DNA from: a virus
Virus record (IMG/VR): IMGVR_UViG_3300046660_000513
Location: 1 to 64,000 of that record
Direction: 5' to 3' (one strand)
Length of the DNA stretch: 64,000 nucleotides
Shown here: positions 18,426-64,000 of the stretch, piece after piece
Layout of the letters: each line of letters starts with the position of its first letter
Numbering within the stretch: position 1 is the first letter of the stretch
Notes under the pieces: generated by a model
Database searches by the model: none
Told to the model about the DNA's origin: nothing
What the model saw: only the letters and a program-made list of their open reading frames with translations
Made by a program: the position numbers and the translations under genes

Positions 18426-19937
18426 CTATCCCCTGACATCGAACCCCCGCCGCCTGCCGAGGGCCTTGAGAGACGTCGCTCCGGGGTCTCCAGTGGCATC
18501 GCTGCCGGTGAGGTGCAGTACCTCGCGGCGGAAGCGGTTATACGCGTCGTCGGTCTTGGTACCCCAGGAGCCGTCCGCGTACTTCTTGTCGAGGAAGCCC
18601 TCCGCAACCAGGGCGTTTTCGACGATCTTGACATCAGCGGGGTACGTCTTGTGCCCGGTGGCCGCCGGAAGATCCTTCTTGCGGGCCGCGATGATGTTGG
18701 ACAGGTCAACGACCGGCTTCACAGGCGGCTTCGGCTTCACCGGAGGCTTCGGAACAACCGGAGCAGACCAGCGGTACGACGCCACGGCCTTGCCGCCACG
18801 CGGGTCCTGCGGGTCAGCGGTAGGCGGGCACACGCCGTCTGCGAACTTGGGGGCGAAGTAGCCAATCACACGGGGCGAGCGGCGCGGGGTGCTGTGAGAC
18901 CAAACCCCGTTGCCCTGCCCGGCGTCCGTGGATCCGGCCTTGACGGAGTTGCCACCCTTGGTGAAGACGTTGTCCGCGTCGAACCCGACGACGACCTCCG
19001 TGTGCCCGTTGCCGAAGTTGCACCAGGCTCCGATGGACGGGTACTCCGACCACTGGCCGTGCTTCTTGGCCCAGTTGGTGAAGACGACCACGTTGTCGAC
19101 CTTGGGGACGATCCCCGATAAGCCGACCTCGTTGTACATGCACCAGTCCCAGATGACGCACCAGGCGACCTTGTTCTCCCCGTACTCCTTGCCCCACGGG
19201 TTGTCGTTGTTCCAGCCGACGGCCGACTCCCACGTCTCGTAGATCTTCTCCGGGACGCTCATGACGTGGTTCAGCAGAGTCAGCCACTGCGGTACAGCCG
19301 GAGTCGGCGGAGTCGGCGGAGTCGGCGCGGCGGGGGAGGGAACCGCGAGCTTTGCCCACGCGGTGGCATCACCGTTGAACAGGTTCCGGTCGAGGCCTCC
19401 GCTGATCGCGTACTGGTGGATCACCCACGTCTTCCAGCCTGCGATGCTGGGCTTCCCCGCAGCATGGTTGGGGTCGGCGATCCACAGCGGGTAGGACCGT
19501 AGCGTCTCCGCGTCCGTCTTGGAGGCCGCCGCAAGCAGGGCGTTGAGGTAGCTGGTGTAGGAGTACACCAGGGCCTTGACGCCGGTCTTCGCCTTGATCC
19601 GGGCGAGGAACTTGAGCGCGTAGGACATCCGCTGGGCCTGGGTGCCTTCGGACGCCTCTAAGTCGAGGGCTAACAGGTCACCGGGCTTGGCCTTGGCCTT
19701 GGACAGGAAGAAGTCGGCTTCCTTGACCGGGTCCTGTGTGGGGTGGCCGAAGTGGTAGTGACCGACCTTCTTTCCTGCGGTGCGGGCGATGGTCACGAAT
19801 GCATCGTGGTCGGCATCCGCTGTGTGCTCCCCTTCGGAAGCCTTGGCGATGACGAAGGCGGCGGTTACGGCTGCGAGGGCAGCGGAGACCGTGGGTATTC
19901 CGTTGTTGTTCGAGACGTCGATACCAGATAGAGACAT
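18426..19937 (-). CDS. Endolysin: GH25 muramidase + CHAP-like domain + peptidoglycan-binding domain
   Basis: GIDVS...IAKASEG...GHYHF...LALDLE...HQY...LDRN (GH25); AWC...GHTEVV...GGNS (CHAP); DGSWGTKT cell-wall binding; AAAGGA RBS before ATG 19937. Confidence 0.9.
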   Translation of the reverse strand: MSLSGIDVSNNNGIPTVSAALAAVTAAFVIAKASEGEHTADADHDAFVTIARTAGKKVGHYHFGHPTQDPVKEADFFLSKAKAKPGDLLALDLEASEGTQAQRMSYALKFLARIKAKTGVKALVYSYTSYLNALLAAASKTDAETLRSYPLWIADPNHAAGKPSIAGWKTWVIHQYAISGGLDRNLFNGDATAWAKLAVPSPAAPTPPTPPTPAVPQWLTLLNHVMSVPEKIYETWESAVGWNNDNPWGKEYGENKVAWCVIWDWCMYNEVGLSGIVPKVDNVVVFTNWAKKHGQWSEYPSIGAWCNFGNGHTEVVVGFDADNVFTKGGNSVKAGSTDAGQGNGVWSHSTPRRSPRVIGYFAPKFADGVCPPTADPQDPRGGKAVASYRWSAPVVPKPPVKPKPPVKPVVDLSNIIAARKKDLPAATGHKTYPADVKIVENALVAEGFLDKKYADGSWGTKTDDAYNRFRREVLHLTGSDATGDPGATSLKALGRRRGFDVRG

Positions 19938-25338: not shown

Positions 25339-25404
25339 GGGGGCTCCTCGGGCTATTCGGCGATGTATCTACCCTATCACACACTCCGGGTATACTGGAA
25401 GTCT

Positions 25405-25554
25405 CCTCAGTTCGTACAACGGCCCGCTCCGGCGGGGACTGCTGACACCTCGCCCGGGGGCGCCCAAGTATTACCCGGCATGAGATGAATGAAGGCGGTC
25501 AGGACACCCCCTGAGGTGGGGGAGACGGGGGTTCGACTCCCCCACTGGGGACCG
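25405..25554 (+). ncRNA. tRNA-like RNA with 76-nt D-loop insertion and 6-nt anticodon loop
   Basis: Acceptor CCTCAGT/ACTGGGG, D stem GTAC/GGAC, CCCCC-TGAGGT-GGGGG, T arm GGGGG-TTCGACT-CCCCC, TATACT -10 at 25391. Confidence 0.65.
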
Positions 25555-25715
25555 CGTTTCACTCTTACCGAACCTCGGCTAGCACAGCTCAGTGCGCTTG
25601 TTCGCATTTTCCCCAACCAGCAAGCAAGTGACGGCATATGACGTACCGTCATGCCAGAGGGACGGAACATCCTGTCTTTCGCACACCGTTTTACGACACT
25701 GGAGGAGTACCCCCT

Positions 25716-37112: not shown

Positions 37113-37264
37113 GGGCGGAATGGCGAGCGTAGGCCGGTTCGAGTCCGGCCGTCCCGCAGGTCGCGGGTGTGAGGTTCAATTCCTCTTAACCACGGTGGCA
37201 AAAAGTGAGGGGCGCGCCCCCGATGACCGCGCAGAGAGGTTCGAGTCCTCTCCCGCCCGCGCAA
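37113..37264 (+). ncRNA. Structured RNA with three tRNA-type T-loop hairpins in terD leader
   Basis: GGCCGG-TTCGAGT-CCGGCC, GAGG-TTCAATT-CCTC, GAGAGG-TTCGAGT-CCTCTC; closing stem CGCGGGTG/CGCCCGCG. Confidence 0.6.
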
Positions 37265-39468: not shown

Positions 39469-39492
39469 CCCTGGATGGCTTGGGAGGGTGTA

Positions 39493-39861
39493 ATGGATTT
39501 TACGGCGGATCAAATTGCGCACGTAGTACACGAGGCGAACCGGGTGTTACAGCGGATCACGGGGGATGCGGTGCTGTCGCGGTCCTGGTGGGAGGCCCCG
39601 CAGGTTCAGCGGGAGGGTCTTGTACACGGGGTGCAGAAGGCCCTTGAAGGGGCGACTCCTGAGGAGCTGCATGAGGAGTGGGTGCGGTATCGGGCGGCTC
39701 GGGGGTGGAAGTACGGTCGTTTGAAGGATGAGCATGCCCGGACTCATCCGTGCATGGTTCCTTTTGATCAGCTTCCTCCGGAACAGCAGATGAAAGACCG
39801 GTTGTTCCACGCGATTGTGCATACGTTGGCTGGTCATCTGGTTTCGGTTGAAAAAGCCTAG
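39493..39861 (+). CDS. RyR (ryanodine receptor repeat) domain protein
   Basis: HEANR...PEELHEEW...GWKYG..KD...RTHPCMVPFDQLP.EQQ.KD.LF. Confidence 0.88.
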   Translation: MDFTADQIAHVVHEANRVLQRITGDAVLSRSWWEAPQVQREGLVHGVQKALEGATPEELHEEWVRYRAARGWKYGRLKDEHARTHPCMVPFDQLPPEQQMKDRLFHAIVHTLAGHLVSVEKA

Positions 39862-44104: not shown

Positions 44105-44314
44105 ATGGAAGAAGCAATGCGCAGGGTCACCGGTGTCATCCTCCACCCTGTCTTCGAAAAAGCCCGCCCCGATATCGTCGTAGCGCCCGGCCCTAACCGC
44201 ACGGTCTCCGTGAACGGCCCGAGAGACCACCTGGACGGCATTTCACGGGCCCTAACCCGCACCGGCTTAGAGATAGTCCGTCCCGCCCCTGCGACACTCG
44301 TAGTCGTATTCTGA
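44105..44314 (+). CDS. Hypothetical protein (contains TTA)
   Basis: GAGGAG RBS. Confidence 0.6.
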   Translation: MEEAMRRVTGVILHPVFEKARPDIVVAPGPNRTVSVNGPRDHLDGISRALTRTGLEIVRPAPATLVVVF

Positions 44315-44393
44315 AGGCTTCGGAAAGATGCCTTCCACTGTCCCGCCTCCCGCCCACGAACAGAAAATTCTGCTACGCGCCCGGGAGGTCGCT

Positions 44394-44894
44394 TTGATCG
44401 TCAATACACCGCAGCCGGGGGATATCGGCTTAACGTCCATTACCGGATTCGTCGGCGGACTCATACGGGTGGGTCAGTTATGTAACGGCGACGGATGGTC
44501 CCATTACGAGCACGCATTCATCGTCCTGGAAGACGGAATGCTGATCGAAGCCATGCCCGGCGGAGCGCAGATCGTTTCCCTGAACGAATACGACGACCGC
44601 GACGTCCTTTACGTGCGCCCCGCCGGTCTCACCGACGCCGACCGGAAGCGGGTATGCGAGGTGGCCCGGAAGTTCGAAGGCGTCGAATACTCATTCGTCG
44701 ACTATGCGGCTATCGCGGCTCATCGGTTGCATCTCCCGATTCCCGGACTGCGGGATTTCGTGGCCGATACGGGTCATATGATTTGCTCGCAGTTGGTCGA
44801 CCGCGCTTACGCCCAGGCTGGAATCAAGCTGTTCTCAGACTCGCGTTGGGACGGCTGGGTGACCCCCGGCGCGCTGTACAAGCGCCTCGCCTGA
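44394..44894 (+). CDS. Permuted papain-like NlpC/P60 (YiiX/YebB-type) amidase
   Basis: PQPGDIGL...HYEHAFI...IEAMPGG...ICSQLVDRAY...VTPG; GGGAGG RBS before TTG 44394. Confidence 0.8.
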   Translation: MIVNTPQPGDIGLTSITGFVGGLIRVGQLCNGDGWSHYEHAFIVLEDGMLIEAMPGGAQIVSLNEYDDRDVLYVRPAGLTDADRKRVCEVARKFEGVEYSFVDYAAIAAHRLHLPIPGLRDFVADTGHMICSQLVDRAYAQAGIKLFSDSRWDGWVTPGALYKRLA

Positions 44895-46345: not shown

Positions 46346-47029
46346 TCAGGAACGGTGCTTTTTCCGAGGAAGATCAGGAAGCCACCAGTCCAGTACCGCA
46401 TCAAGGAAATCCGACCGGGACGGGAACTCATACCCCTTCCAGAGGGTGTCAATGACAGCCAGCTCCTGCCGGGAGGGCCGGAAAGGCTGCTGTGCCGTCT
46501 GTTTGATCCTCCCGCGCGCAGACCGACGGCCCTCCACCTCCCCGAACAGACTGCCTGAATCGTCTTCATCGGGCTGGAGCCGCGCGAGGGCCCTTTCCCG
46601 GATTTTGAAGAAGGCCCCGGCGTTGTTCGCGGCATTCACAGCCCGGCGGACCACCACAGCGTTAGTGGGGGTCCGGCCCGTCTCCTGACTCTTGGCCGCC
46701 TGATACGCGTCAAACCGTTCCTGTACGTCCAAGGAGATGTTGACCGCGCACTGCATGGTCAGTTTTCCCGTCGTCCCGAGGTCCGGGAACGGGAGGGTGA
46801 TCGGGTCCGGCTGTCGGGCGCTCTCCGCCGGGACGGGTTGCGCGGGTACCAGAACGGCTTCAGGCGTCTCCGGATCGGGTACGACAGCCGGTTCCTCAGG
46901 GACGACCGGCGGAGGCGCTACAGGGGTCTCTGGAGGCTGTGCAACGCGGGGTTTCTCCCGCTGGGGCCGACGGGCGAAAGCTGCCGCCAGATCCGGATCA
47001 TCCGGGAGCCCGCCAATTCGGTCGGTCAT
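46346..47029 (-). CDS. ParA partner (putative centromere-binding protein)
   Basis: ATGA-coupled downstream of parA; disordered N-terminus, RHH-like C-terminus (SRSDFLDAVLD). Confidence 0.6.
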   Translation of the reverse strand: MTDRIGGLPDDPDLAAAFARRPQREKPRVAQPPETPVAPPPVVPEEPAVVPDPETPEAVLVPAQPVPAESARQPDPITLPFPDLGTTGKLTMQCAVNISLDVQERFDAYQAAKSQETGRTPTNAVVVRRAVNAANNAGAFFKIRERALARLQPDEDDSGSLFGEVEGRRSARGRIKQTAQQPFRPSRQELAVIDTLWKGYEFPSRSDFLDAVLDWWLPDLPRKKHRS

Positions 47030-47997
47030 GCCGCGTCCGCCTCATCGTCCAGGGCGAACCACGTCTGCACGACTTCCATCGCAAGTGACTGGTAGTCCCC
47101 GGCGAGCGCCCGGATCGACGGCAGCAGCTTGGGGTCCACATCCTTGGAGTTCCTCAGCTCCTGCGGCACCTTGCCCAGCTCACGGCACTTCACGGCCGCA
47201 GCCTCTACATGGCGGATGGCCTGATCGAACACTGGAGCGGTGCCCTGGAGATCCCGTTCCAACTGCTCCTTGATGTTCTTCTGCACCTTGGTAGCCGACG
47301 TGTTCGTGGAGAACAGGACGACACCCAGCAGCCGCAGAAGCGGGTTCAAATCCAGTGCGGTGACGAACCGTCGGGCCACGACCCGGAGCCCCTTACGGGA
47401 CGAAGGATCCGACTTGGAGGGGATGAGAACCATGTCCCCGGACGTGAGCGCCTGTAGCTGGAGAACGTCCGAGCCGGGTGCCACGTCGAGGATGATGCAG
47501 TCGAACTCCTCGCGCAGCGGGTCGATCGCAGCCGCGTACATGCCCATCCACGCGGTGCGGTCCTCGGACTCGCCCTGGGCTCCGGCGATACGCCGCTGTA
47601 CGTACAGCTCTTCAACCACGTTCTCCAGTTCGGTGCCACCCGGGACGACGTACAGGTTCGGGCGTGCGGTGCCGGTGGGGACCAGGGGCTTGCCCTCCAG
47701 GATGGCGGCAGCTTGAGCGGCGCCGTTGTCGTCGAGGGCTGATTTGGTGATGCCGAGGTCTTCGCAGTTGTTGCCCTGTTCGTCCATCTCGATGAGCAGG
47801 GTCTTTTTGCCGATGGCGGCGAGGGCTACAGCGAGAGCGGCGGCTGTGGATGATTTGCCGACGCCTCCCTTGCCGTTGACGATGACGATGATCTTGCGGA
47901 GCAGGTCGCCGTTTTCGATGAGCTGGAGTCGGCGGCGGAGCGCCTTCTTCACCGTGTCGAGCTGGACCAGCGTGATGCTGGCTTGGATGGTTGGCAT
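47026..47997 (-). CDS. parA: ParA-family partition ATPase
   Basis: VNGKGGVGKSS deviant Walker A, IEMDEQGN, IILDVAPG. Confidence 0.93.
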   Translation of the reverse strand: MPTIQASITLVQLDTVKKALRRRLQLIENGDLLRKIIVIVNGKGGVGKSSTAAALAVALAAIGKKTLLIEMDEQGNNCEDLGITKSALDDNGAAQAAAILEGKPLVPTGTARPNLYVVPGGTELENVVEELYVQRRIAGAQGESEDRTAWMGMYAAAIDPLREEFDCIILDVAPGSDVLQLQALTSGDMVLIPSKSDPSSRKGLRVVARRFVTALDLNPLLRLLGVVLFSTNTSATKVQKNIKEQLERDLQGTAPVFDQAIRHVEAAAVKCRELGKVPQELRNSKDVDPKLLPSIRALAGDYQSLAMEVVQTWFALDDEADAA

Positions 47998-48935: not shown

Positions 48936-49973
48936 TTACAGCCCCTCAGCGATCTTGTGCAGTTCCTGCACGGGACCGGTCTCCAGCTGGTCCGTCCACT
49001 CGGTCGGCCACTCGACTCCGGCAGCGCCACGGATGTTGCCCGCGATCGCCGCGAGGGAGTCGCTGTCCCCGTTCGAGACGGCCGCCCGCTGGAGAACCTG
49101 AACCGGCTCGTCCCAGAGACCGACGGTGCACAGCATCGCCCCGGCAAGCGCCTCGGGAGCCGTCCAGCCCTCGCCCGTGATCTGGCAGGGGTCGGAGTCT
49201 CCGGCCCATCCGTGGTTCAGGGCGTCCCTCGCGGACAGCAGGTAGCCCTTGCACAGCTCGTATCCGGCCCGCAGGTATGCCTTGCTGGAGCCGTACTCGG
49301 ACTGCCCCCACAGATCCCCGAGAACGCGGGTGGGGTAGGTGCCCGGTGCCCGGCAGATCTCGATCAACAGGTCCAGGATCTCCCGGCCTTCCATGCCATC
49401 GTAGGCGCCGAGGATTGCAGCCACCGTGAGCGCGGCCGAGGCCAGTGCTGCCGGGTGAGCGTGCGTGATGGCAGCCGACAGGTAGGCCAGGTGGATGGGG
49501 GACTCGTACAGGTCGTTGGACAGTGCGATCGGTGCGACGCGCATGTTGGCGCCGCATCCCATGGTGTTGATGTCCGTGGCGTCCTGCCAGGTGTAGCCGT
49601 CGCGCAGCATGTCGCAGGCACGCATGCAGGCGTTGCCGGGCGCCCGGTGGTTGTCAGGGTGCTGCGACCAGTAGACGTACTTACTGACCAGCTCGTCCGC
49701 GAAGCTCTCCGTGTACGTCCCGAGGTTGCTGGGTCGCATCTGAAGGAGGGCCCGGCCGGTGGCGATGGTCATCTGGGTGTCGTCGGAGATGAGTACCTTG
49801 CCGTCGGCGTCGCGGTAGCACTTGGCGTGGGGGGCGTTGTCAAAGTCGGCGGTCTGCCAGTTCCGGCCGGGAAGGAAGTTCAGGATGTCGCTGGTGCGGT
49901 TGAACTCGCGGCTGTAGCCGAGGGCGTCTCCGAGGGCGCCTCCGATAAGCGAGGAAAGGGCCTTGTCATTCAA
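48936..49973 (-). CDS. ADP-ribosylglycohydrolase (DraG/ARH family)
   Basis: GALGDALG...E, SDDTQMT, GCGANMRVAP, SNGDSDSLAAIAG; motif 50006 + AGGAG RBS before TTG. Confidence 0.93.
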   Translation of the reverse strand: MNDKALSSLIGGALGDALGYSREFNRTSDILNFLPGRNWQTADFDNAPHAKCYRDADGKVLISDDTQMTIATGRALLQMRPSNLGTYTESFADELVSKYVYWSQHPDNHRAPGNACMRACDMLRDGYTWQDATDINTMGCGANMRVAPIALSNDLYESPIHLAYLSAAITHAHPAALASAALTVAAILGAYDGMEGREILDLLIEICRAPGTYPTRVLGDLWGQSEYGSSKAYLRAGYELCKGYLLSARDALNHGWAGDSDPCQITGEGWTAPEALAGAMLCTVGLWDEPVQVLQRAAVSNGDSDSLAAIAGNIRGAAGVEWPTEWTDQLETGPVQELHKIAEGL

Positions 49974-55309: not shown

Positions 55310-55389
55310 GACTGGGGGAGGGGACACTTGATGTCCCCTCCCCCTAGTGTTAGGGTAGATACAACGTAATCGACCGAGGAGACGGCCCC

Positions 55390-55635
55390 ATGACCGCACG
55401 TAAGACGGACTACTCCACCACCCGCCCGGACGGCATGGAGTTCATCTGTAACCGGTGGGTATTCGCTGGTGACAAGGGCTACCGCGTCAAGCCCAACGAC
55501 GACGGTCACGGCGACGACGGCACGTTCAACGTGTACTCGTACGCGCACACGCAGGAGCGAGTGGTCGGCACCTTCGGCATGAACTTGACAGAGGACGCGG
55601 CGCACGAACTGGCCGCGTCCCTCGCAAAGCGTTAG
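55390..55635 (+). CDS. Hypothetical protein
   Basis: Motif 55348 + GAGGAG RBS. Confidence 0.7.
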   Translation: MTARKTDYSTTRPDGMEFICNRWVFAGDKGYRVKPNDDGHGDDGTFNVYSYAHTQERVVGTFGMNLTEDAAHELAASLAKR

Positions 55636-55698
55636 AGCCCGGATACGCCGAAGGGGCGGAGAGTCGGAAGACTCCCGCCCCTTCGGCGTGCATACGGC

Positions 55699-56232
55699 TT
55701 AGTAGTTGCCGTTGCTGAGGATCTCGCCGGTCTTGTCATACACCGTGACGAGACCGTTCTTGCTGTCCTTGCCCCGGCTGGTCTGCCAGTCGGTGAACGC
55801 ACTGGCAAGCAGCTTGCCGTCACTCCCGTGCGGGCCCATCAGACCGCCGCTGTAGTCGGTGTAAATGTCGGCGGTGTCCAGGATGTCGTTCTTCTTGTCG
55901 GCACCCTGGATCTTGGTGACGTGCTTCACGGCGGCCTGCTCGGTGGCGGTCCCGTTCTTGTTCACGTACGCCTTGAACGCCTGCACCGGGGTTTGTGCGG
56001 GCGCCGCGTCCTTGCCAGCGGTCAGGGTCGGCCGGGCGTTGTGGGAGGGAGCGGAGTCGTCTGACGTGCCCTTGCTGCCGTTGGAAGAAGCGGCGACCGC
56101 GACAACCCCGACTGCGACAAAGCCGATGAAGGCGTACAGGCAGCCCTTGCCCTTGCGCTTCTTCGGCTCCGGCTGCGGCGCGTACTGCGGCGCGGGGTAC
56201 TGGGGCGGCTGCTGCGGTTCCTGCTGAGACAT
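55699..56232 (-). CDS. Membrane-anchored exported protein
   Basis: PQ-rich N-terminus, KKRKGKGC + TM helix, extracellular domain. Confidence 0.75.
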   Translation of the reverse strand: MSQQEPQQPPQYPAPQYAPQPEPKKRKGKGCLYAFIGFVAVGVVAVAASSNGSKGTSDDSAPSHNARPTLTAGKDAAPAQTPVQAFKAYVNKNGTATEQAAVKHVTKIQGADKKNDILDTADIYTDYSGGLMGPHGSDGKLLASAFTDWQTSRGKDSKNGLVTVYDKTGEILSNGNY

Positions 56233-56467
56233 GCGGGGTTCCCCCTGAGGTGAGTTGGGGCCTGCGGGCGCATGGCGGCACAACAGGCGGAGAGCAGCAT
56301 ACGGTATTGACCGAGGCCGTTCAATCTACCCTCTCACCCCGAGCCATTTGCAGGCCTATTTGCAGGACTTGTTGTAGGCTCCCGTAAACGTGATCGGTAA
56401 GCTACCGTGAACATCACCGAACACAATCAGGCCTCATATGCCGGACCTGTAGCACCTGTAGGGGATC

Positions 56468-56734
56468 ATGAGCCTCATAGACGATCTGGTGAGCATCGAA
56501 TCCCGGCGCGGTACCTATCCCGGGCCGCAGTGCACCGTCGCAAAGATCATGGGACAGATCAGCGAAGACGACCGCGCCCAGTTGTGCCGGGTCCTGGACA
56601 ACCCCGACGTCCCCGGGTCTGTCATCGCCGGGGCTCTTACCCGCAACGGGTATCCCGTCGCCGACAAAACGGTTCTGCGCCATCGCAAGCGTGGTACGTC
56701 CTCCGGCTGCCACTGCCCCAAGGAAGACGCGTGA
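56468..56734 (+). CDS. Small HTH protein typical upstream of actinophage metallophosphoesterase
   Basis: CTVAKI...IAGAL...G..V...TVLRHR...CHC. Confidence 0.7.
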   Translation: MSLIDDLVSIESRRGTYPGPQCTVAKIMGQISEDDRAQLCRVLDNPDVPGSVIAGALTRNGYPVADKTVLRHRKRGTSSGCHCPKEDA

Positions 56735-57981
56735 GCAGCGGTCTCTCCGGCGACCTGGAGGCCTTACTGCGCCTCCCCGTCGGTCAAGCGGGACCCTCCA
56801 GCACCGGACACGTCCCCACAGCCGCTGTCGGCCGGGAATGGCAGCCCGGAGTCGCATTCAACGCTGACGGGGCCATGACCGTCGTCACCGCCCCCACCAC
56901 GACCAGCCCGCAAGACCCCCAGGCCTGGAAAGCTGCCGTCGAAGAACTCGGCCTCGCAGTCCCCGAAGGCTGGACCGTCCAGCTTGCCGAAGCCAAGTAC
57001 GATCCAGCCGCCTGGCACCGGGACGCCCAGGGCGAAGAAGCCGTCACCCGGCCGGTATGGCGGCTGAAGTTCCGGGTTGCTCCGTCCTCTCTGGCCGGGT
57101 ACGGCGCGGAGGATGTCGCGACGATGGTTCGGGACGCCATGCGCATCAAACGCACCCCACGGCCCCCTGTAGCCCCGTCTCGGGGCCTTGTAGTCGCCTA
57201 CTCCGACCCCCAGACGGGCAAAGTCGACCGCAGGGGCGGCACGCCAGAGCTGATCGCCCGCATCGCGGAGAAGTTCGACCGGCTCCAGGACCACGTCAGA
57301 GACCTCAAGACCCTCGGCCGTCCGGTGGACTCCGCCTACTGGATGGATGCCGGGGACTGCGTCGAAGGTCAGCAGAACGTCGCCTCGCAGCTTGCCACGA
57401 ACGATCTGACCATGACGGAAATGGTCCGGCTGCACCGCAGGCTGACGTTCGATGGACTGTCTCGGCTGGCCCGGCAGTTCGACTCCGTAACGGCTGCGGT
57501 GTGCGCGTCCAACCACGCCCAGCACCGCATCAACGGCAAGGTCGTCGGACCGCCGTCCGACGACTGGGGCATCGAGACGATGCAGCAGGTTGCCGACGCC
57601 TTCAACTGCAACCCGGACTCCTTCGGTCACGTCAAGTTCATCCTGCCTGAGAAATGGGAGGAGACCGTGAGCGTGGACGTCGCCGGAACAGTCGTAGGTC
57701 TTTCCCACGGTCACCAGGTGCGTGGTCCCGGCAAGGTTGTGGACTGGTGGCGCGGCCAGACGTTCGGAGAGCAGCCGGTAGCCGCCGCGAAAATCCTTCT
57801 GACCGGGCATTTCCACCACTTCCGGGCGGAAGAGGTCGGCTCCGGCAAGCTGTGGGTACAAGCCCCGGCCCTGGACAACGGGTCTTCCTGGTACGCCAAT
57901 CGCACCGGCGACGACTCCCGGGCGGGTCTGCTGGTGTTCTCCGTAGGTGCGGACGGCTGGTCCGACCTTGTCATTCTCTGA
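56731..57981 (+). CDS. Metallophosphoesterase (Mre11-like) family protein
   Basis: SDPQTGK, GDCVEG, SNH, HGH, GHFHH motifs; GTGA overlap start. Confidence 0.88.
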   Translation: MSSGLSGDLEALLRLPVGQAGPSSTGHVPTAAVGREWQPGVAFNADGAMTVVTAPTTTSPQDPQAWKAAVEELGLAVPEGWTVQLAEAKYDPAAWHRDAQGEEAVTRPVWRLKFRVAPSSLAGYGAEDVATMVRDAMRIKRTPRPPVAPSRGLVVAYSDPQTGKVDRRGGTPELIARIAEKFDRLQDHVRDLKTLGRPVDSAYWMDAGDCVEGQQNVASQLATNDLTMTEMVRLHRRLTFDGLSRLARQFDSVTAAVCASNHAQHRINGKVVGPPSDDWGIETMQQVADAFNCNPDSFGHVKFILPEKWEETVSVDVAGTVVGLSHGHQVRGPGKVVDWWRGQTFGEQPVAAAKILLTGHFHHFRAEEVGSGKLWVQAPALDNGSSWYANRTGDDSRAGLLVFSVGADGWSDLVIL

Positions 57982-57995
57982 GAGGGGTATCCGCT

Positions 57996-58325
57996 GTGTC
58001 TCATGACGACGCTGAATCCGAGGGCGAAGAGCTGGCGCTCCCTCCGGGGATGCTGCCCCTGATCCAGATCCAGGAACCGGAGGGCGACGCACTTCGGTGG
58101 ACCCCCACCACGTTCTTGATTGACCTGTTCATGGCGTTCGCCGGGGTGCTGGAAGCCATCGCCGGTTTCTACGGAGACCAGGCACGCTCCCTCGCCGCGC
58201 GGGCCTCCCTCAAGGAAGAGCTGAAGGACCGGGACATCCGGCAGCGCATCAAGACGGAGGAACGTCTCCGGATGCAGCTGCACACCCTGGAGGACATCTC
58301 GTACTTACCCGAGGCCCAAGAGTGA
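57996..58325 (+). CDS. Hypothetical protein upstream of terminase
   Basis: GAGGGG RBS, GTG 57996. Confidence 0.6.
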   Translation: MSHDDAESEGEELALPPGMLPLIQIQEPEGDALRWTPTTFLIDLFMAFAGVLEAIAGFYGDQARSLAARASLKEELKDRDIRQRIKTEERLRMQLHTLEDISYLPEAQE

Positions 58326-58499
58326 TAGCCTAGTTCTCCGCAGTCAGGATCGCACCCCATGGCGGTCAGGTCTGCTTCCACGAACCCCGGTCTCTTACGA
58401 GCAGACCGGGGTTTCGTCATTTCCGGCATTCCCCCAGCTCTTGACTGTTCCGTACAATGATCAGACAAGTGAGCATTGACCGGGGAAAGAGGATAAGGC

Positions 58500-60206
58500 G
58501 TGGCGCGTAACGCATGGGCGGACAGACTCGCCACGCTCTACGAATTACAGGCGAAAAAGGACTCCCACCGGAACCCCGCCGTATGGGTAAACGACATCCT
58601 CGGCGAAGACATGTGGTCCATGCAGACCGCCATTTGCGAGAGTGTCCGGGACCACCGATTCACAGCCGTCCAGTCCTGCCACGCCGCAGGCAAGTCCCAC
58701 CTTGCCTCCCGCCTCTCAGCCTGGTGGATCGCCACCACACCCATGGAAGAAGTCTTCCTCGTCACCACGGCGCCCACCGCCCGTCAGGTGGCCTCCATCC
58801 TCTGGCGCTATATCCAGCGCGCCCACAACCTCGCCAAAGAGCGCGGATTCACCATCCCCGGCCAGATCCTCTCCTCGCCGATCCCGTCCTGGAAAATCAA
58901 CGGTGAACTAGTCGGCATCGGGCAGAAGCCGCCGGACAAGGAAGACTCGGCCTTCCAGGGTTTCCACGCCGAAAAGATCCTCGTTGTCATCGACGAAGCG
59001 TGCGGCGTCGACCGGTCCATCTGGGACGCCGTGGACTCCCTCGTCACCAACGAGTCGTCCCGGGTCCTCGCCATCGGGAACCCCACCGACCCCGCGTCAC
59101 ACTTCCGGCAGGTGTGCTCCCCTGAGTCCCCGCTAGGCGAGAAATGGAACAAGATCCGCATCGACGCCCTGCGGTCCCCGCTGATGACCGAAGAGGCCTG
59201 CTCCCGGTACCCCCGCCTGGTGGAGTACATGAAGGAGGAAGGGATCCCCTTCGCCACCGAAGAGGTCTCCCCGACGCTCCAGAAGACGCTGGTGGGCCCG
59301 ACCTGGGTCTATGAATCCATGGTGGGCTGGGGCAAAGACTCCAGCCTGTTCAAGTCCAAAGTGCGGGCCGAGTTCCCCGAAACGTCCTCCGAGGGCGTTA
59401 TCCCGCTGGCCTGGGCAGAAGCCGCCATGGCCCGGTGGGAGAAATGGCGGGACGGGACCTACATCATCGACCCGGACACCGAAGAACCCGTGTGCCTGAT
59501 CGAACCGCGCGCCCAGCAGATCGGCGAGATCGTCATCGGTGCGGACATCTCCGACGGCGGCGAGGATGAGACAGTCGCCGCGATCCGGCAGGGCGAGGTG
59601 ATCCGTGAACTGATCGCGTTCCCCTCCAAGGACCCGCTGACCACCGCAGACGACCTCCAGGTGATCGCGGCCAAGCACGGGGCCCCGACGAACGCCAAGT
59701 ACATCGTGGACGGTATCGGCGTCGGCTCCGGTGTCGTGGCCAAGCTGCGCCGGGACTCCCAGGACACGTACGCGTTCATCGCGGCGGCCAACAGCGGTCG
59801 CAAGGACACCACCCAGAAAATGTCGTTCATCAACGACAGGGCGGCGGCCTGGTGGAACCTGCGCGAGATTCTGAACCCGGCCCGTAAGGGCGGCGCTGTT
59901 GCCGCGTTCCCCCGGGACGACAAGCTGCTTGCGGAACTGACCTGCCCCCGGTTCGACACACAGCCCGGTACCCCGAAGTACAAAATCGAGAAGAAGGAAG
60001 ACATCAGAACCCGGCTGGGGCGGTCGACCGACCGGGCAGACGCCGTGATTCAGGCGTTCTGGCTGCCTTCTGCGGTACCGGGCCCTGAGGAATTGAAGGA
60101 CAACGCCTGGAAGGCTTCCGAGGAACGCTACATCGGCAACGATGATTCAGAGGCCGTGGTGGAAAAGTGGGATACGGCCTCGGATATGGAACTCTCAGGC
60201 TGGTAA
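58500..60206 (+). CDS. Terminase large subunit
   Basis: SCHAAGKS Walker A, TAPTARQV, VIDEACG Walker B, IGNPT, GADIS..G.DET, RSTDRADAV. Confidence 0.93.
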   Translation: MARNAWADRLATLYELQAKKDSHRNPAVWVNDILGEDMWSMQTAICESVRDHRFTAVQSCHAAGKSHLASRLSAWWIATTPMEEVFLVTTAPTARQVASILWRYIQRAHNLAKERGFTIPGQILSSPIPSWKINGELVGIGQKPPDKEDSAFQGFHAEKILVVIDEACGVDRSIWDAVDSLVTNESSRVLAIGNPTDPASHFRQVCSPESPLGEKWNKIRIDALRSPLMTEEACSRYPRLVEYMKEEGIPFATEEVSPTLQKTLVGPTWVYESMVGWGKDSSLFKSKVRAEFPETSSEGVIPLAWAEAAMARWEKWRDGTYIIDPDTEEPVCLIEPRAQQIGEIVIGADISDGGEDETVAAIRQGEVIRELIAFPSKDPLTTADDLQVIAAKHGAPTNAKYIVDGIGVGSGVVAKLRRDSQDTYAFIAAANSGRKDTTQKMSFINDRAAAWWNLREILNPARKGGAVAAFPRDDKLLAELTCPRFDTQPGTPKYKIEKKEDIRTRLGRSTDRADAVIQAFWLPSAVPGPEELKDNAWKASEERYIGNDDSEAVVEKWDTASDMELSGW

Positions 60207-60263
60207 GGCGAAAATCCTGAATGTTAGCATAAGCCGGACAGATGCATAGACTAGGGGAGCACC

Positions 60264-61820
60264 GTGGCGGATGAGCAGTTAAATGGCAGCGACCTGCCTG
60301 CGGGCAGCGCGCTTGCCAATTATGCCTCGGACTACCTGAACAAACCCCTGACCAAGACCGTCAACGGCGCCCCTGATGTAATCCTGGACGCCGAAGAAGG
60401 CAGCCTCTACACCTGGGCCGACTCCCTCGCCGCATCGTGGTCCGGCATACCCGGACGCATCCTCCTCGACGAGAATGAATTCGAAAGCCTCTCGTTCGAT
60501 GAAATGCTCAGCCGGGACGGCAAGGCCCGCACCATTCAGCAGGTGCTCACCCTGCCCATCCGCTCCGCCCCGTGGAAAATCCTTCCGGGTCCCGGAGACA
60601 GCGGAGAGGCCGCCTTCGTACAGGCCGCGCTGACCAAGCCCGCCAACCAGGGGGGTATGAAGACCCCGATGCGGCTGCTCATCGCCCAGGCACTGTCCGC
60701 GCGCACGAACCGGAAAGCCTGTTTCGAGAAGGTCTTCACCGAACGGGACGGCAAGATCGTCTACGAGCGCCTCGCGTTCCGGCCCTCCCCGACGACAGCC
60801 ATCGCCCGCGACCCGAAGACAGGGGCTTTCCGGGGGTTCCGGCAGCGCCCCGTAGCTGTGGGCGGTGAGATCTGGCCGGACATCTGGATCGACATCCCCG
60901 CGCAGTACTCCTGGGTGCACCTGAACAACCAGCACATCAACGCCGCGCGCGGGCACTCCGACATGGAACTGATCTACTGGCTGCACGACAAGAAGCAGAA
61001 AGTGCTGTTCCTTTGGGCGACGTTCCTGGAGGCGAACGCGCTCGGCCGCTACGTGGTGCAGGCTGAGGATGAGACTCGGGCCAAGCAGTACGCACAGGCC
61101 CTGCGGTACGTCAAAAACGGCGGTGTCCTCGGCACTTCCAATGAGATCAAGGTAGAAACCCTGGAGCTGGGCACCGGTGCGGCCGGGCTGTTCAAGGACT
61201 TCATCGACTACCTGGACAACCAGATGGCGGCCTCGGTCCTCGCGGGGTTCACCAACCTCCCGGACAGTCCCGGCGGTTCCTACGCGCTGTCCAAAGACCA
61301 GTCCGACTTCTTCCTCCAGTCCCTCACAGGTACCGCCAAGGAGCTGGCAGAGTCCATCACGAACTACGTGATCGCCGACCTGGTGATGTACAACTACGGG
61401 CCGAAGGGCGTTTGCCCGACCTTTGAGTTCGGTCCGCTGTCTGAGGGCGACTTGGAGACGGTCAAGGCGCTGCTGCTCGGATTCGGCACAACGCCGACGG
61501 AACTCCGGGTGCCGCAGGCATTCATGACCGAGCTGACCAAGATGATGGGCACCTATCTTGACATGCCCATGGATGAGGTCAACAAGGAATTCCAGCAGCT
61601 GGAAGAGCGCATCGACCAGCGAATGGACCTGGAGCTGGAGACAAAGAAGGCCGGTCTCGATGCCCAGAAGCAGATGGCCGCGCAGGGTGGTCCTCAGGCC
61701 GGAGCTGCGGTAGGCGCCGCGAATCAGCAGAAAAAAGCTGAGATGGCGAAGGCCGGGGCCAAGATCAACAAGGCTGCACAGATGGTCAAGCAAAAGGCCG
61801 CAGCCGCCAAGGGCAAATAA
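60264..61820 (+). CDS. Portal protein (Mu gp29/DUF935-like)
   Basis: Position after terminase; FIDYLDNQMAASVLAG...GGSYALS. Confidence 0.85.
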   Translation: MADEQLNGSDLPAGSALANYASDYLNKPLTKTVNGAPDVILDAEEGSLYTWADSLAASWSGIPGRILLDENEFESLSFDEMLSRDGKARTIQQVLTLPIRSAPWKILPGPGDSGEAAFVQAALTKPANQGGMKTPMRLLIAQALSARTNRKACFEKVFTERDGKIVYERLAFRPSPTTAIARDPKTGAFRGFRQRPVAVGGEIWPDIWIDIPAQYSWVHLNNQHINAARGHSDMELIYWLHDKKQKVLFLWATFLEANALGRYVVQAEDETRAKQYAQALRYVKNGGVLGTSNEIKVETLELGTGAAGLFKDFIDYLDNQMAASVLAGFTNLPDSPGGSYALSKDQSDFFLQSLTGTAKELAESITNYVIADLVMYNYGPKGVCPTFEFGPLSEGDLETVKALLLGFGTTPTELRVPQAFMTELTKMMGTYLDMPMDEVNKEFQQLEERIDQRMDLELETKKAGLDAQKQMAAQGGPQAGAAVGAANQQKKAEMAKAGAKINKAAQMVKQKAAAAKGK

Positions 61821-61904
61821 AAAACCGAACCCCGCCAGGAGCCAAGCTCAACCGGCGGGGTTCGATCACCCAACCACCCAAAATGGATATTACTGGGAGG
61901 GTGC

Positions 61905-62534
61905 ATGTCGGAGCAAGCTCAGCAAAAGGCCCAAAGCGAATCTTCACAACAGGATGCCGAGATTGCTGCTGTCGTCGCCATTCTGGTAGCGGGTCCGCCC
62001 CTCATTACCGCAATGAAGGCCATTTCAGTTGCAGCGAAACTCCCCAAAAAGCTAGTACTAGCCCTACTAGCCATCATCAAGTACAAACCAGGCAAAAAGG
62101 CACAGGCCAAGGGATCCGGCCCCGTCACAGCCGCCCTGAAAAAGAACATGCGCTACCGGGCCGCCTACCTCATCAACGCCGCACAGAGACTGGCCGCAGC
62201 CCCCGACCTGGAAGCAGCCATCGCCCGGGAAAAAACGCTGTTTGCCGCCCACAAGGAGGCCTCAGCACGCCGCACCGCAGCAGCGAAAGCCTCCGTAGCC
62301 ATGGCCACCACCAGCCACAGCCCCGTCCTGGGATGGGGCGGCATCCTCGACAACCGCACCACCCCGGACTGCCGCTGGCTCATCGGGAAAAACTATTCCG
62401 TCGACAACCCGCCCGAAGGACTCCACCCCGGCGCCCGGCACCCGCGCTGCCGGTGCTACCCAACTCCGTCCTACCCCGGAAAACCGGTCGTCACAGAACT
62501 CCCGGCACACCTCAGCGGGAATTCTCCCCTATAG
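61905..62534 (+). CDS. MuF-like minor head protein
   Basis: W..ILDNRTTPDC..L.GK...PG.RHPRCRC. Confidence 0.85.
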   Translation: MSEQAQQKAQSESSQQDAEIAAVVAILVAGPPLITAMKAISVAAKLPKKLVLALLAIIKYKPGKKAQAKGSGPVTAALKKNMRYRAAYLINAAQRLAAAPDLEAAIAREKTLFAAHKEASARRTAAAKASVAMATTSHSPVLGWGGILDNRTTPDCRWLIGKNYSVDNPPEGLHPGARHPRCRCYPTPSYPGKPVVTELPAHLSGNSPL

Positions 62535-62619
62535 GTACTAGCCTCCCAGATTGACGAATAAACAGGTAGTTTGGTATCCGGCATGCCTGCTGAAAACACG
62601 CGCGCAAGGAGACCTCACT

Positions 62620-62943
62620 ATGGCTACCGCCTTAACTGTCCTTTCTGCCTCCAATGGTGGCCTGTCCACCTTTACCACCGTCGCAGCGGACACCACCGGG
62701 AACACGTTCTCGAATGACGGCCGCACCTGGCTGTTCATCGACGGGGGCGCCGCCGGTGGCACGCTCATCGTGAAGTCCAACGCCATTCTCCCCACGGGCC
62801 TGGTCGTTCCGGACAAGACGTACACCATCGCCGCGACCACCACGTACCTCCTCGACCCGTCGGACTTTCCGTACGTCGTCACCGGCGACACCGTGAAGGT
62901 CACCGCGTCCGTCACCACGATCAAGCTCGCCGCGTTCCACTAA
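62620..62943 (+). CDS. Putative virion (head decoration-like) beta protein
   Basis: AAGGAG RBS; G..F.NDGRT.L.I..G; Thr/Val-rich. Confidence 0.65.
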   Translation: MATALTVLSASNGGLSTFTTVAADTTGNTFSNDGRTWLFIDGGAAGGTLIVKSNAILPTGLVVPDKTYTIAATTTYLLDPSDFPYVVTGDTVKVTASVTTIKLAAFH

Positions 62944-62972
62944 ACACGCCGTAACTCCTTGGAGCGCAGGAC

Positions 62973-64000
62973 ATGAGTGCAGAGACTGGGGCGTTAGCGA
63001 CCACCCCGCATCCGTTAGGAAAGCCGAACGGACCGGGTCTTTTCGGAAACAAGTCGTTGAGCCTCCCGCCGTATGTGCAAAACGTGGCCCAGAGCCTTAT
63101 GGAGAAGCGCGGGATGGATCGCTCCCGGGCAATCGCCACGGCCATCGGAGTCATGAAGAACTGGGCATCCGGGCAGGGGAAGGTGCACCCCGAGGTCCGT
63201 GCTGCGGCAGGCGCGGCCCTGGCGGAGTGGGAAGCCGCAAAAATGAAGGCCCACGCCACCCCCAACAAGGGCGCTGTGAGCCTGTCCCAGCCGATGACTC
63301 TCCTGCGCTCCATCCTGGACGGCTCCACTGCGGTGGAACTGGCGCAGACCGCCACAGAGCCCTCAGGAGGCCCGAAGCCCGCCAAGGCCCCGGCCAAGCA
63401 GGACAAGAAGGCCCAGCAAGACCAGCAGCAGACCAAGCACCAGCTGCCTCCGGGCGCTACAGGCTGGAAGCATGGGTGGATTCCTGTCGATTCGTCCGGA
63501 AAAGCTGTCGGTCCATCGCAGATGAACAAGTCTGCGCAGGAGATCAAGGACATGACGGGCCACGACCAGGCCACCAAGGACGCGATCGCCTCCGCGTACC
63601 ACAACAAGTCAGTTGCTGACGGCAAGAAAGCCGCCACAAAGGCCAAGTCCGCCAAGAAGAAGGCGGACGCCGCCGCCAAGCATGCCGCAAAGGCCAAGAC
63701 CGCAGCCGCCAAGAAGGCGCTCCGGGCCAAGGTAGTCGCCGCGAAGAAGGCTGCGGTGGCTGCCAAGAGGAATGCCGCAGCTATCGCGAAAAACAAGGCT
63801 GCGAAGACGAAGGCCCGTCAGAAGCTGGTCACTCAGGCCACCCGGCAGGCGCTCGCGGACAAGAAGGCGGGCCGGTCGCTGACGCCGTCACAGGTCCGGC
63901 TGCTGGACGCGTACAACTCTCAGCAGGCCTCGCAGCTGGACAACCTGCGTAACAACGTGTCGCTGTCTCAGCCGGTTGGCGGGGAATCCCAGGTCACTGT
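62973..64000 (+). CDS. Head-associated protein with Lys/Ala-rich histone-like segment (3' partial; not in ORF track)
   Basis: Open to window end; LPPYVQNVAQSL...SRAIATAIG..KNWA, WKHGWIP, KKAATKAKSAKKK... Confidence 0.75.
   Translation, partial: MSAETGALATTPHPLGKPNGPGLFGNKSLSLPPYVQNVAQSLMEKRGMDRSRAIATAIGVMKNWASGQGKVHPEVRAAAGAALAEWEAAKMKAHATPNKGAVSLSQPMTLLRSILDGSTAVELAQTATEPSGGPKPAKAPAKQDKKAQQDQQQTKHQLPPGATGWKHGWIPVDSSGKAVGPSQMNKSAQEIKDMTGHDQATKDAIASAYHNKSVADGKKAATKAKSAKKKADAAAKHAAKAKTAAAKKALRAKVVAAKKAAVAAKRNAAAIAKNKAAKTKARQKLVTQATRQALADKKAGRSLTPSQVRLLDAYNSQQASQLDNLRNNVSLSQPVGGESQVT

Follow-up and report, generated by a model that had tools for sequence, protein, structure and literature searches.

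A 64,000-nucleotide stretch of viral DNA, positions 1 to 64,000 of the IMG/VR record IMGVR_UViG_3300046660_000513 (hereafter the window), carries the rare leucine codon TTA close to the starts of many of its late genes. We find that this pattern is real, that it is selected at the level of the codon, and that it sets apart the genes for packaging, the virion and lysis as a class. We estimate a probability of roughly 0.5 that these N-terminal UUA codons form a selected translational gate on the late programme, which would operate through the host tRNA-Leu(UAA), encoded by bldA in Streptomyces.

The window is the first 64 kb of a 76,251-bp record (G000; 63% guanine plus cytosine, GC) in which we called 129 genes with our own codon-bias gene caller, and genes were classed as early or late by function. 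G000 is a fragment; a relative, G001 (124,939 bp), is 97% complete according to CheckV and has tail genes, two tailspikes, DNA polymerase A and an SNF2 helicase, none of which are present in the G000 fragment. The late block of G000 extends from 56.7 kb to the end of the record and encodes an exonuclease-like protein, a 109-residue protein, the large terminase, a Mu-type portal, a MuF protein, two proteins without assigned function, a 1,839-residue protein, a primase/polymerase fragment on the reverse strand, a 542-residue protein, the scaffold and the major capsid protein. For comparison we used 15 IMG/VR contigs and one contig from a metagenome-assembled genome (MAG), with portal proteins 77-92% identical, grouped into nine lineages.

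TTA codons mark packaging, virion and lysis genes

Of the 22 in-frame TTA codons in G000, 20 belong to genes for packaging, the virion or lysis, or to immediate partners of such genes. Within the late block, TTA accounts for 10 of 29 leucine codons in codons 1-20 and for only 5 of 430 beyond (Fisher odds ratio (OR) of 44.7, p = 4.8e-10, for the first 20 codons against the rest of the late genes). The other 115 genes have TTA at 1 of 197 leucine codons in the first 20 codons and at 5 of 1,034 afterwards. Similar proportions were seen in G001, where 35 virion, packaging and tailspike genes use TTA at 15 of 61 leucine codons in the first 20 codons and at 14 of 898 later, compared to 3 of 253 at the starts and 5 of 1,575 in the remainder of the other 156 genes. 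Expressed by position, 10 of the 15 TTAs of the G000 late block and 15 of 29 in G001 lie within codons 1-20.

An initial annotation of the window had listed in-frame TTAs in these genes and had remarked on their absence from the long early genes that it read. Every TTA that it listed was in frame at its coordinate under our own gene calls, and counting per gene upheld the absence: the approximately 15,000 early codons contain 6-7 TTAs, with none in DNA polymerase A, the primase, the helicase, ParA, the ADP-ribosylglycohydrolase (ARH) or TerD. TTA is likewise absent from the DNA polymerase A, SNF2 helicase and primase genes of G001. Equal use of TTA in early genes, which the same annotation had named as grounds for abandoning the idea, is not what the early and late counts above show.

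The effect is largely specific to one codon. TTA is by far the most position-skewed codon, followed by the glutamine codon CAA (OR of 12; 5/14 at G000 late-gene starts against 11/249 later, p = 6e-4), with the others at ORs of 2-12; CTA, CTT, TTG, AAA and ATA are not enriched at late-gene starts. A milder, non-specific shift towards AT accompanies the TTA effect there: GC content at third codon positions (GC3) is 0.65-0.70 within the first 20 codons of late genes and 0.84 beyond, and CAA, GGT, CCT and GTT are mildly enriched. By reading frame, the first 60 nucleotides of late genes contain 10 TTAs in frame and 1 and 1 in the other frames in G000, and 15 in frame against 1 and 2 in G001, whereas early-gene starts in G000 have 1 in frame against 5 and 9. 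We rejected a DNA motif as the source of the pattern because out-of-frame TTA is not enriched and the sites share no common flanking context. Import of an AT-rich late module was likewise rejected, with GC3 past codon 20 being 0.84 in late genes and 0.82 in early ones.

Within the window, the marked packaging and head genes lie on the plus strand. The large terminase (58500-60206) has TTA at codon 16 (58545-58547), and its nearest relatives among cultured phages are Streptomyces phages, with 38% identity. The portal (60264-61820; Pfam Portal_Mu, 6e-41) has TTA at codon 6 (60279-60281). A 107-residue head-module protein (62620-62943), for which family searches gave no match, has TTA at codon 5 (62632-62634), and a 388-residue head-module protein (62973-64139, running past the window end at 64000) has it at codons 8 (62994-62996) and 15 (63015-63017). 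Beyond the window, the 542-residue gene (G000 72985-74613) carries TTA at codons 6, 8, 115 and 189, and the 1,839-residue gene, which follows MuF at G000 64136-69655 (L054:2136-7655), carries it at codons 8, 14 and 36. The 1,839-residue protein ends in an ADP-ribosyltransferase exoenzyme domain (PF03496). With the ARH encoded at 48936-49973 (PF03747, 1e-45), it makes a possible writer and eraser pair, with TTA in the transferase only.

Genes at a distance from the late block carry the same codon. In G001, two adjacent tailspike-like depolymerase genes with pectate-lyase beta-helix domains (108085-110598 and 110665-113970; L057:3085-8970), the second of which also has a K1-lyase C-terminal domain, lie outside the part represented by G000; both have TTA at codons 3 and 7, despite a distance of around 20 kb from the late block. 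The GH25 endolysin (18426-19937, minus strand; Pfam Glyco_hydro_25, 5e-30) has TTA at codons 89 (19671-19673) and 93 (19659-19661), as the initial annotation had it, and also at codon 273 (19119-19121), which had gone unlisted; its G001 orthologue has TTA at codons 93 and 279. On the plus strand at 44105-44894, a 69-residue gene (44105-44314; TTA at 44267, codon 55) is followed by a YaeF/C92 permuted-papain amidase-like gene (NCBIfam YaeF, 2.6e-11; TTA at 44430 and 44478), which is a probable second lysin and has four TTAs within 166 codons in its G001 orthologue. Physically separate units of one functional class thus bear the same mark, an arrangement that resembles a regulon.

Three further genes contain TTA. 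In the gene directly upstream of the terminase, encoding the 109-residue protein (57996-58325, plus strand), it lies at codon 104 (58305-58307). The 416-residue exonuclease-like gene (56731-57981, plus strand; phrog_284 exonuclease, 1.5e-56) has it at codon 12 (56764-56766). The RyR-domain gene (39475-39861, plus strand; Pfam RyR) has one TTA at 39547, the sole case in a gene unconnected with late functions, and its G001 orthologue has one at codon 19. The MuF-like head morphogenesis gene (61905-62534, plus strand; Pfam Phage_Mu_F) is an unmarked late gene with no TTA at all.

Conservation, translation and decoding of the marked codons

All relatives keep the start codons that precede the N-terminal TTAs, including the GTG of the terminase (8/8) and the ATG of the 388-residue gene (9/9). 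Between start and TTA, third-position changes dominate, with 40 against 12 and 8 at the other positions in the terminase and 46 against 10 and 10 in the 388-residue gene. Together, the conserved starts and this pattern of changes indicate that the TTAs are translated, and miscalled starts were excluded as an explanation on the same two grounds. The terminase, portal, 1,839-residue and 542-residue genes have no alternative start within 37-45 codons downstream.

The initial annotation had asked whether TTA persists at these positions in homologous phages, and five core sites were indeed kept in between 6/7 and 9/9 lineages. Codon 16 of the terminase is TTA in 8/8 lineages, some of which have a second TTA at codon 10. 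Codon 5 of the 107-residue gene is TTA in 9/9 lineages (12/12 loci), although the flanking alanine and threonine codons vary synonymously. Codon 8 is TTA in 8/9 lineages in the 388-residue gene, where codon 15 is TTA in 3/9, and in 7/8 in the 1,839-residue gene, which has a third TTA in some lineages. In the portal, codon 6 is TTA in 6/7 lineages and a TTA occurs within the first 11 codons in 8/9, including diverged N-termini that have it at codon 5 (L003) or codon 11 (L008). The persistence of TTA in diverged portal N-termini, together with the extra TTAs nearby, indicates selection on TTA near the start and not on the peptide. Among comparisons in which the amino acid is unchanged, TTA persists in 76%, against 40% for other codons ending in A or T (AT3 codons) within the same 40 N-terminal codons and 23% for AT3 codons elsewhere. 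Outside the core sites, the TTA of the 109-residue gene is found in 5/8 lineages and that of the exonuclease-like gene in just 2/7, making the latter a weak member of the marked set.

In L016, a relative at a greater distance (37% portal identity), TTAs are scattered without N-terminal bias, and TTA is missing from all 72 annotated genes in the first 50 kb of the 54.9-kb genome of JackieB, the closest Streptomyces phage in culture. The signature is therefore specific to this clade.

The sole tRNA of the phage (51429-51504, minus strand; ARAGORN and Rfam) has the anticodon CAA, which reads UUG and not UUA, and the relatives likewise have one tRNA, always with anticodon CAA. No tRNA with a UAA anticodon was found by ARAGORN, with default settings or relaxed settings allowing introns, or by Rfam on G000, G001-G003 and two tRNA-like regions. 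One rare leucine codon is thus served by a tRNA of the phage's own, while UUA is left to the host, on which its decoding must rely.

The tRNA(CAA) itself varies in form. Here and in L001 it is 76 nucleotides long and its variable arm is short, an unusual feature in a tRNA-Leu, whereas an 83-nucleotide form with a long arm occurs at L003:775-857, L007:292-374, L008:2386-2468 and L012:1842-1924. At L018:175-257 it has yet another sequence, the anticodon remaining constant while the tRNA scaffold is replaced. Editing of tRNA(CAA) to UAA by a phage deaminase (48226-48873) was considered and rejected, as this protein matches dCMP (deoxycytidylate) deaminases (T4 Cd, ComEB) better than TadA. Two tRNA-like RNAs at 25399-25560 and 37113-37261, each just after a promoter motif, have acceptor-like pairing and good T-arms (GGGGGTTCGACTCCCCC; GAGGTTCGAGTCCTC) without a canonical anticodon arm; Rfam gave only weak matches to the T-arms of transfer-messenger RNA (tmRNA) and tRNA-Sec, and neither is an evident UUA decoder.

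A proposed host-tRNA gate and the competing explanations

In the mechanism that we propose, the marked mRNAs (those for terminase, portal, several head-module proteins, the giant ADP-ribosyltransferase protein, tape measure, tailspikes and lysins) would be read by a single, scarce host tRNA-Leu(UAA). With UUA at codons 3-16, a ribosome awaiting this tRNA would still cover the start site or queue back onto it. Output per mRNA would then be set by tRNA supply and not by initiation. Aborted products would be just a few residues in length, and pairs of UUA codons would sharpen the response. Assembly and lysis would then follow whatever host state controls the tRNA, which in Streptomyces would be the onset of differentiation or stationary phase. 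The codon pattern, its confinement to one gene class, its conservation and the absence of a phage decoder are observed, whereas we infer the identity of the host, the limiting role of the tRNA and any coupling to development.

The host is probably a member of the Streptomycetaceae, in which the scarce tRNA would be bldA. The phage TerD (37298-37891, plus strand), a marker of host origin, shares 81-87% identity with its chromosomal counterparts in over 100 named Streptomyces, Kitasatospora and Streptacidiphilus, and seems to be a stress gene acquired recently from a host. For the phage ARH, the closest homologues from named organisms all belong to Streptomyces; the terminase, portal, capsid and DNA polymerase A are each nearest to the same group of S. 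griseus phages; and all but one of the 244 capsid matches are actinophages. Endolysin look-alikes in the ESM Atlas gave mixed hints at phylum level only. The sequence turns up in rhizosphere metagenomes.

The phage distribution also mimics a signature of streptomycetes, in which TTA is biased towards gene starts, as is not seen in other actinobacteria (PMC4255298, review). In the bldA system TTA is very rare, absent from growth-type genes, conserved among orthologues and decoded by one host tRNA (PMC4255298). Rarity outside the marked class, bias towards the start and conservation among orthologues, three features of bldA/TTA control, were all found in the phage. We regard as tentative a fuller version of the proposal, which seems somewhat less probable than the gate itself, in which a clade of roughly 125-kb soil Streptomyces phages would have made bldA the licence for its late programme, with a 'UUA regulon' of about a dozen packaging, virion and lysis genes marked at codons 3-16 in separate transcription units, and with particle production and lysis timed by host differentiation and not by a transcription cascade of the phage alone.

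Several observations weigh against a gate tied to Streptomyces development. For some species and media, opinions differ on whether bldA tRNA is in limiting supply early in growth. The sequencing runs containing the sequence are rhizosphere metagenome DNA only, with none recorded as RNA. The phage has a GC content of 63% compared to approximately 72% for Streptomyces, and contigs of relatives were placed in two soil MAG bins labelled Bacillota/Firmicutes (L018 = JAQBPS010000646.1; protein P0130). Because TerD and ARH are Streptomyces-like and the core genes are those of actinophages, both placements are probably binning errors arising from similar GC. One of the bins, G004, comprises more than 770 contigs, with sampled contigs ranging from 57% to 71% GC and duplicate tRNA-Leu variants; TTA makes up 0.7% of its leucine codons, none of its 53 tRNAs is a tRNA(UAA), and the phage is absent from its relatives. 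With G004 so fragmented and heterogeneous, MAG binning is weak evidence about the host either way. UUA avoidance has been reported for Streptomyces phages (PMC10732093), with frame-breaking UUA inserts in a few terminases as the known exception, and, with the 72 JackieB genes also devoid of TTA, a gate would be an unusual strategy. The unmarked genes are a further difficulty. The scaffold has no TTA, the only TTA of the major capsid protein lies at codon 47 and that of the G001 major tail protein at codon 102, neither near the start, and several tail genes have internal TTAs only or none.

These exceptions also limit what had been claimed at the outset. The initial annotation had described late genes in general as marked near the start, which holds for the terminase, portal and head-module genes but fails for MuF, scaffold, major capsid protein and the G001 major tail protein; its timer over the whole morphogenesis programme is contradicted by the same genes.

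A dosage throttle would explain just as well why the high-copy capsid, scaffold and major tail proteins lack the mark, and such a throttle is the main rival to the gate. Under it, N-terminal UUA would be a fixed brake, with no host-state signal. It would hold down those proteins of which little is required or of which a surplus does damage (terminase, portal, tape measure, tailspikes, the ejected ADP-ribosyltransferase protein and lysins), compared with the capsid, scaffold and tail-tube proteins encoded on the same long late mRNAs. An N-terminal TTA is present in the low-copy or enzymatic components, and the evidence for selection and conservation suits a throttle as well as a gate. However, G001 proteins of 442, 382 and 253 residues, of the size of low-copy tail or baseplate proteins, lack an N-terminal TTA. 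The endolysin and tailspikes are in separate transcription units and could be adjusted through promoter or ribosome-binding site, yet they share the rare codon; lysis and tailspike genes that are transcribed separately and share TTA look more like targets of a common trans-acting input. A codon read by one host tRNA would also be an odd choice if no such input were wanted. A purely constitutive throttle seems less likely to us than the gate, though it survives as a rival. A gate or brake on late-protein synthesis through host tRNA-Leu(UAA) is the most likely function of the marked codons, and coupling of this control to Streptomyces development through bldA is plausible.

The initial annotation had gone further and envisaged a prophage, kept as a ParA-partitioned plasmid, that is dormant while the hyphae are vegetative and makes particles and lyses only after the host differentiates. 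The window does encode a ParA-type ATPase (47026-47994; AAA_31/CbiA/ParA domains), a DUF2637 protein, ArdC and a resolvase domain, and the TTA evidence would apply to such an element as well. Persistence as a plasmid nevertheless found no support in our searches: a portal homologue of at least 60% identity was present in no named isolate among 5.8 billion proteins, a close one was present in none of the 72,556 PLSDB plasmids, and relatives were seen on metagenome contigs only. No repressor or immunity module was identified, and the 47-60 copies of a promoter motif, together with the phage's own DNA polymerase A, primase and SNF2 helicase, are as in large lytic phages. The genome resembles that of a large self-replicating phage, and we judge the prophage version improbable.

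Still less probable is that TTA, the most AT-rich leucine codon, serves to keep late-gene starts unstructured. The lower GC3 and the mild rise of CAA, GGT, CCT and GTT at these starts would agree with selection for an open 5' end, and the initial annotation had allowed that AT-richness of 5' ends might explain the pattern. The enrichment is codon-specific, however, passing over CTT, CTA, TTG, AAA and ATA, and the other AT3 codons are not retained as TTA is. Moreover, the region from -20 to +40 of TTA-bearing late genes folds at -14.9 (G000) and -15.1 (G001) kcal/mol, compared to -11.5 and -12.0 kcal/mol for early genes (p = 0.015 and 0.039), and in G001 the late genes with and without TTA are both at -15.1 kcal/mol. 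As the TTA-bearing starts fold more strongly than early ones, opening of the start does not account for TTA. Finally, recoding, in which the TTAs would cause ribosomes to hop or shift frame, as has been suggested for the terminase of phiHau3, has a precedent in UUA-led bypass in Streptomyces phage terminases (PMC10732093) but is very improbable here, because the marked reading frames continue through TTA with conserved protein on both sides in one frame and no inserts of 7-10 nucleotides, unlike a phiHau3-type bypass.

Promoter motifs and relation to known systems

The promoter motif GCTAGGGTAGATA, allowing up to two mismatches, occurs at 47 sites between 225 and 55361 of the window, against 0.45 expected by chance. 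It precedes most short operons on both strands, and no copy lies in 55362-64000. G001 holds 60 copies, one of them at 67861 before the head-tail operon. Classing G001 genes as early or late by their distance from GCTAGGGTAGATA was tried and abandoned as too crude, since terminators intervene and one copy heads the head-tail operon. A further copy, GCTAGGGGAGATA, lies beyond the window at G000 71784-71858 (L054:9784-9858), with an 11-bp GC-rich hairpin and a T-tract within 35 nucleotides. This site opens a 1.3-kb stretch without a called gene upstream of the 542-residue head gene and may specify a short RNA or an attenuator.

Control by TTA and bldA is a classic feature of Streptomyces development that has so far concerned host regulators and, in phages, only the proposal of terminase bypass. 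If the gate exists, it would be a general and simple way for a virus to sense host physiology at the ribosome, and it would explain why this clade retains a codon that other Streptomyces phages have purged. The TTA pattern also serves as an inexpensive sequence marker from which the late genes, and perhaps the hosts, of uncultured actinophages can be predicted. In addition, the marked starts offer a direct test of whether bldA supply limits translation in vivo, one that can be made without isolating the phage.

The closest parallel is bldA/TTA control of adpA and pathway-specific regulators, which shares the rare, start-biased and conserved TTA and the single host tRNA. There the targets are host regulators, whereas here they are about a dozen phage structural, packaging and lysis genes, often with two TTAs in the first 16 codons, and it is from the probable host that we infer bldA. 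The terminase bypass of phiHau3 and StrepC.1 likewise involves UUA in a Streptomyces phage terminase and has been proposed as a sensor of host state (Smith 2013; Antonov 2023, PMC10732093). It depends, however, on frame-breaking 10-nucleotide inserts, so that terminase is made without the tRNA, and concerns one gene where many are marked here. With frames intact, the protein would be made when the tRNA is present, which is the opposite logic. For Streptomyces phage CW39, nine TTA-containing genes have been listed and bldA dependence speculated upon (PMC13350457, 2026). Those genes are HNH endonucleases and hypotheticals, and no analysis of gene class, position or conservation was reported for them. 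Our literature search turned up no account of a conserved TTA tag, in frame and N-terminal, on the late genes of a phage as a class.

Beyond Streptomyces, the codon usage of papillomavirus L1 and L2 matches the tRNA pools of differentiated cells. Capsid production is again tied to host differentiation through a match of codons and tRNA, but in a eukaryotic virus and by a diffuse bias over whole genes, with no single N-terminal codon. In E. coli, minor codons within the first 25 or so codons reportedly modulate expression, as described by Chen and Inouye in 1990. Rare codons near the start have an outsized effect on yield in that system too, although they are AGA and AGG in host genes and not a conserved, class-wide tag on a viral late programme. 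The TTA tag on late genes adds to this known principle of rare-codon control, with different targets.

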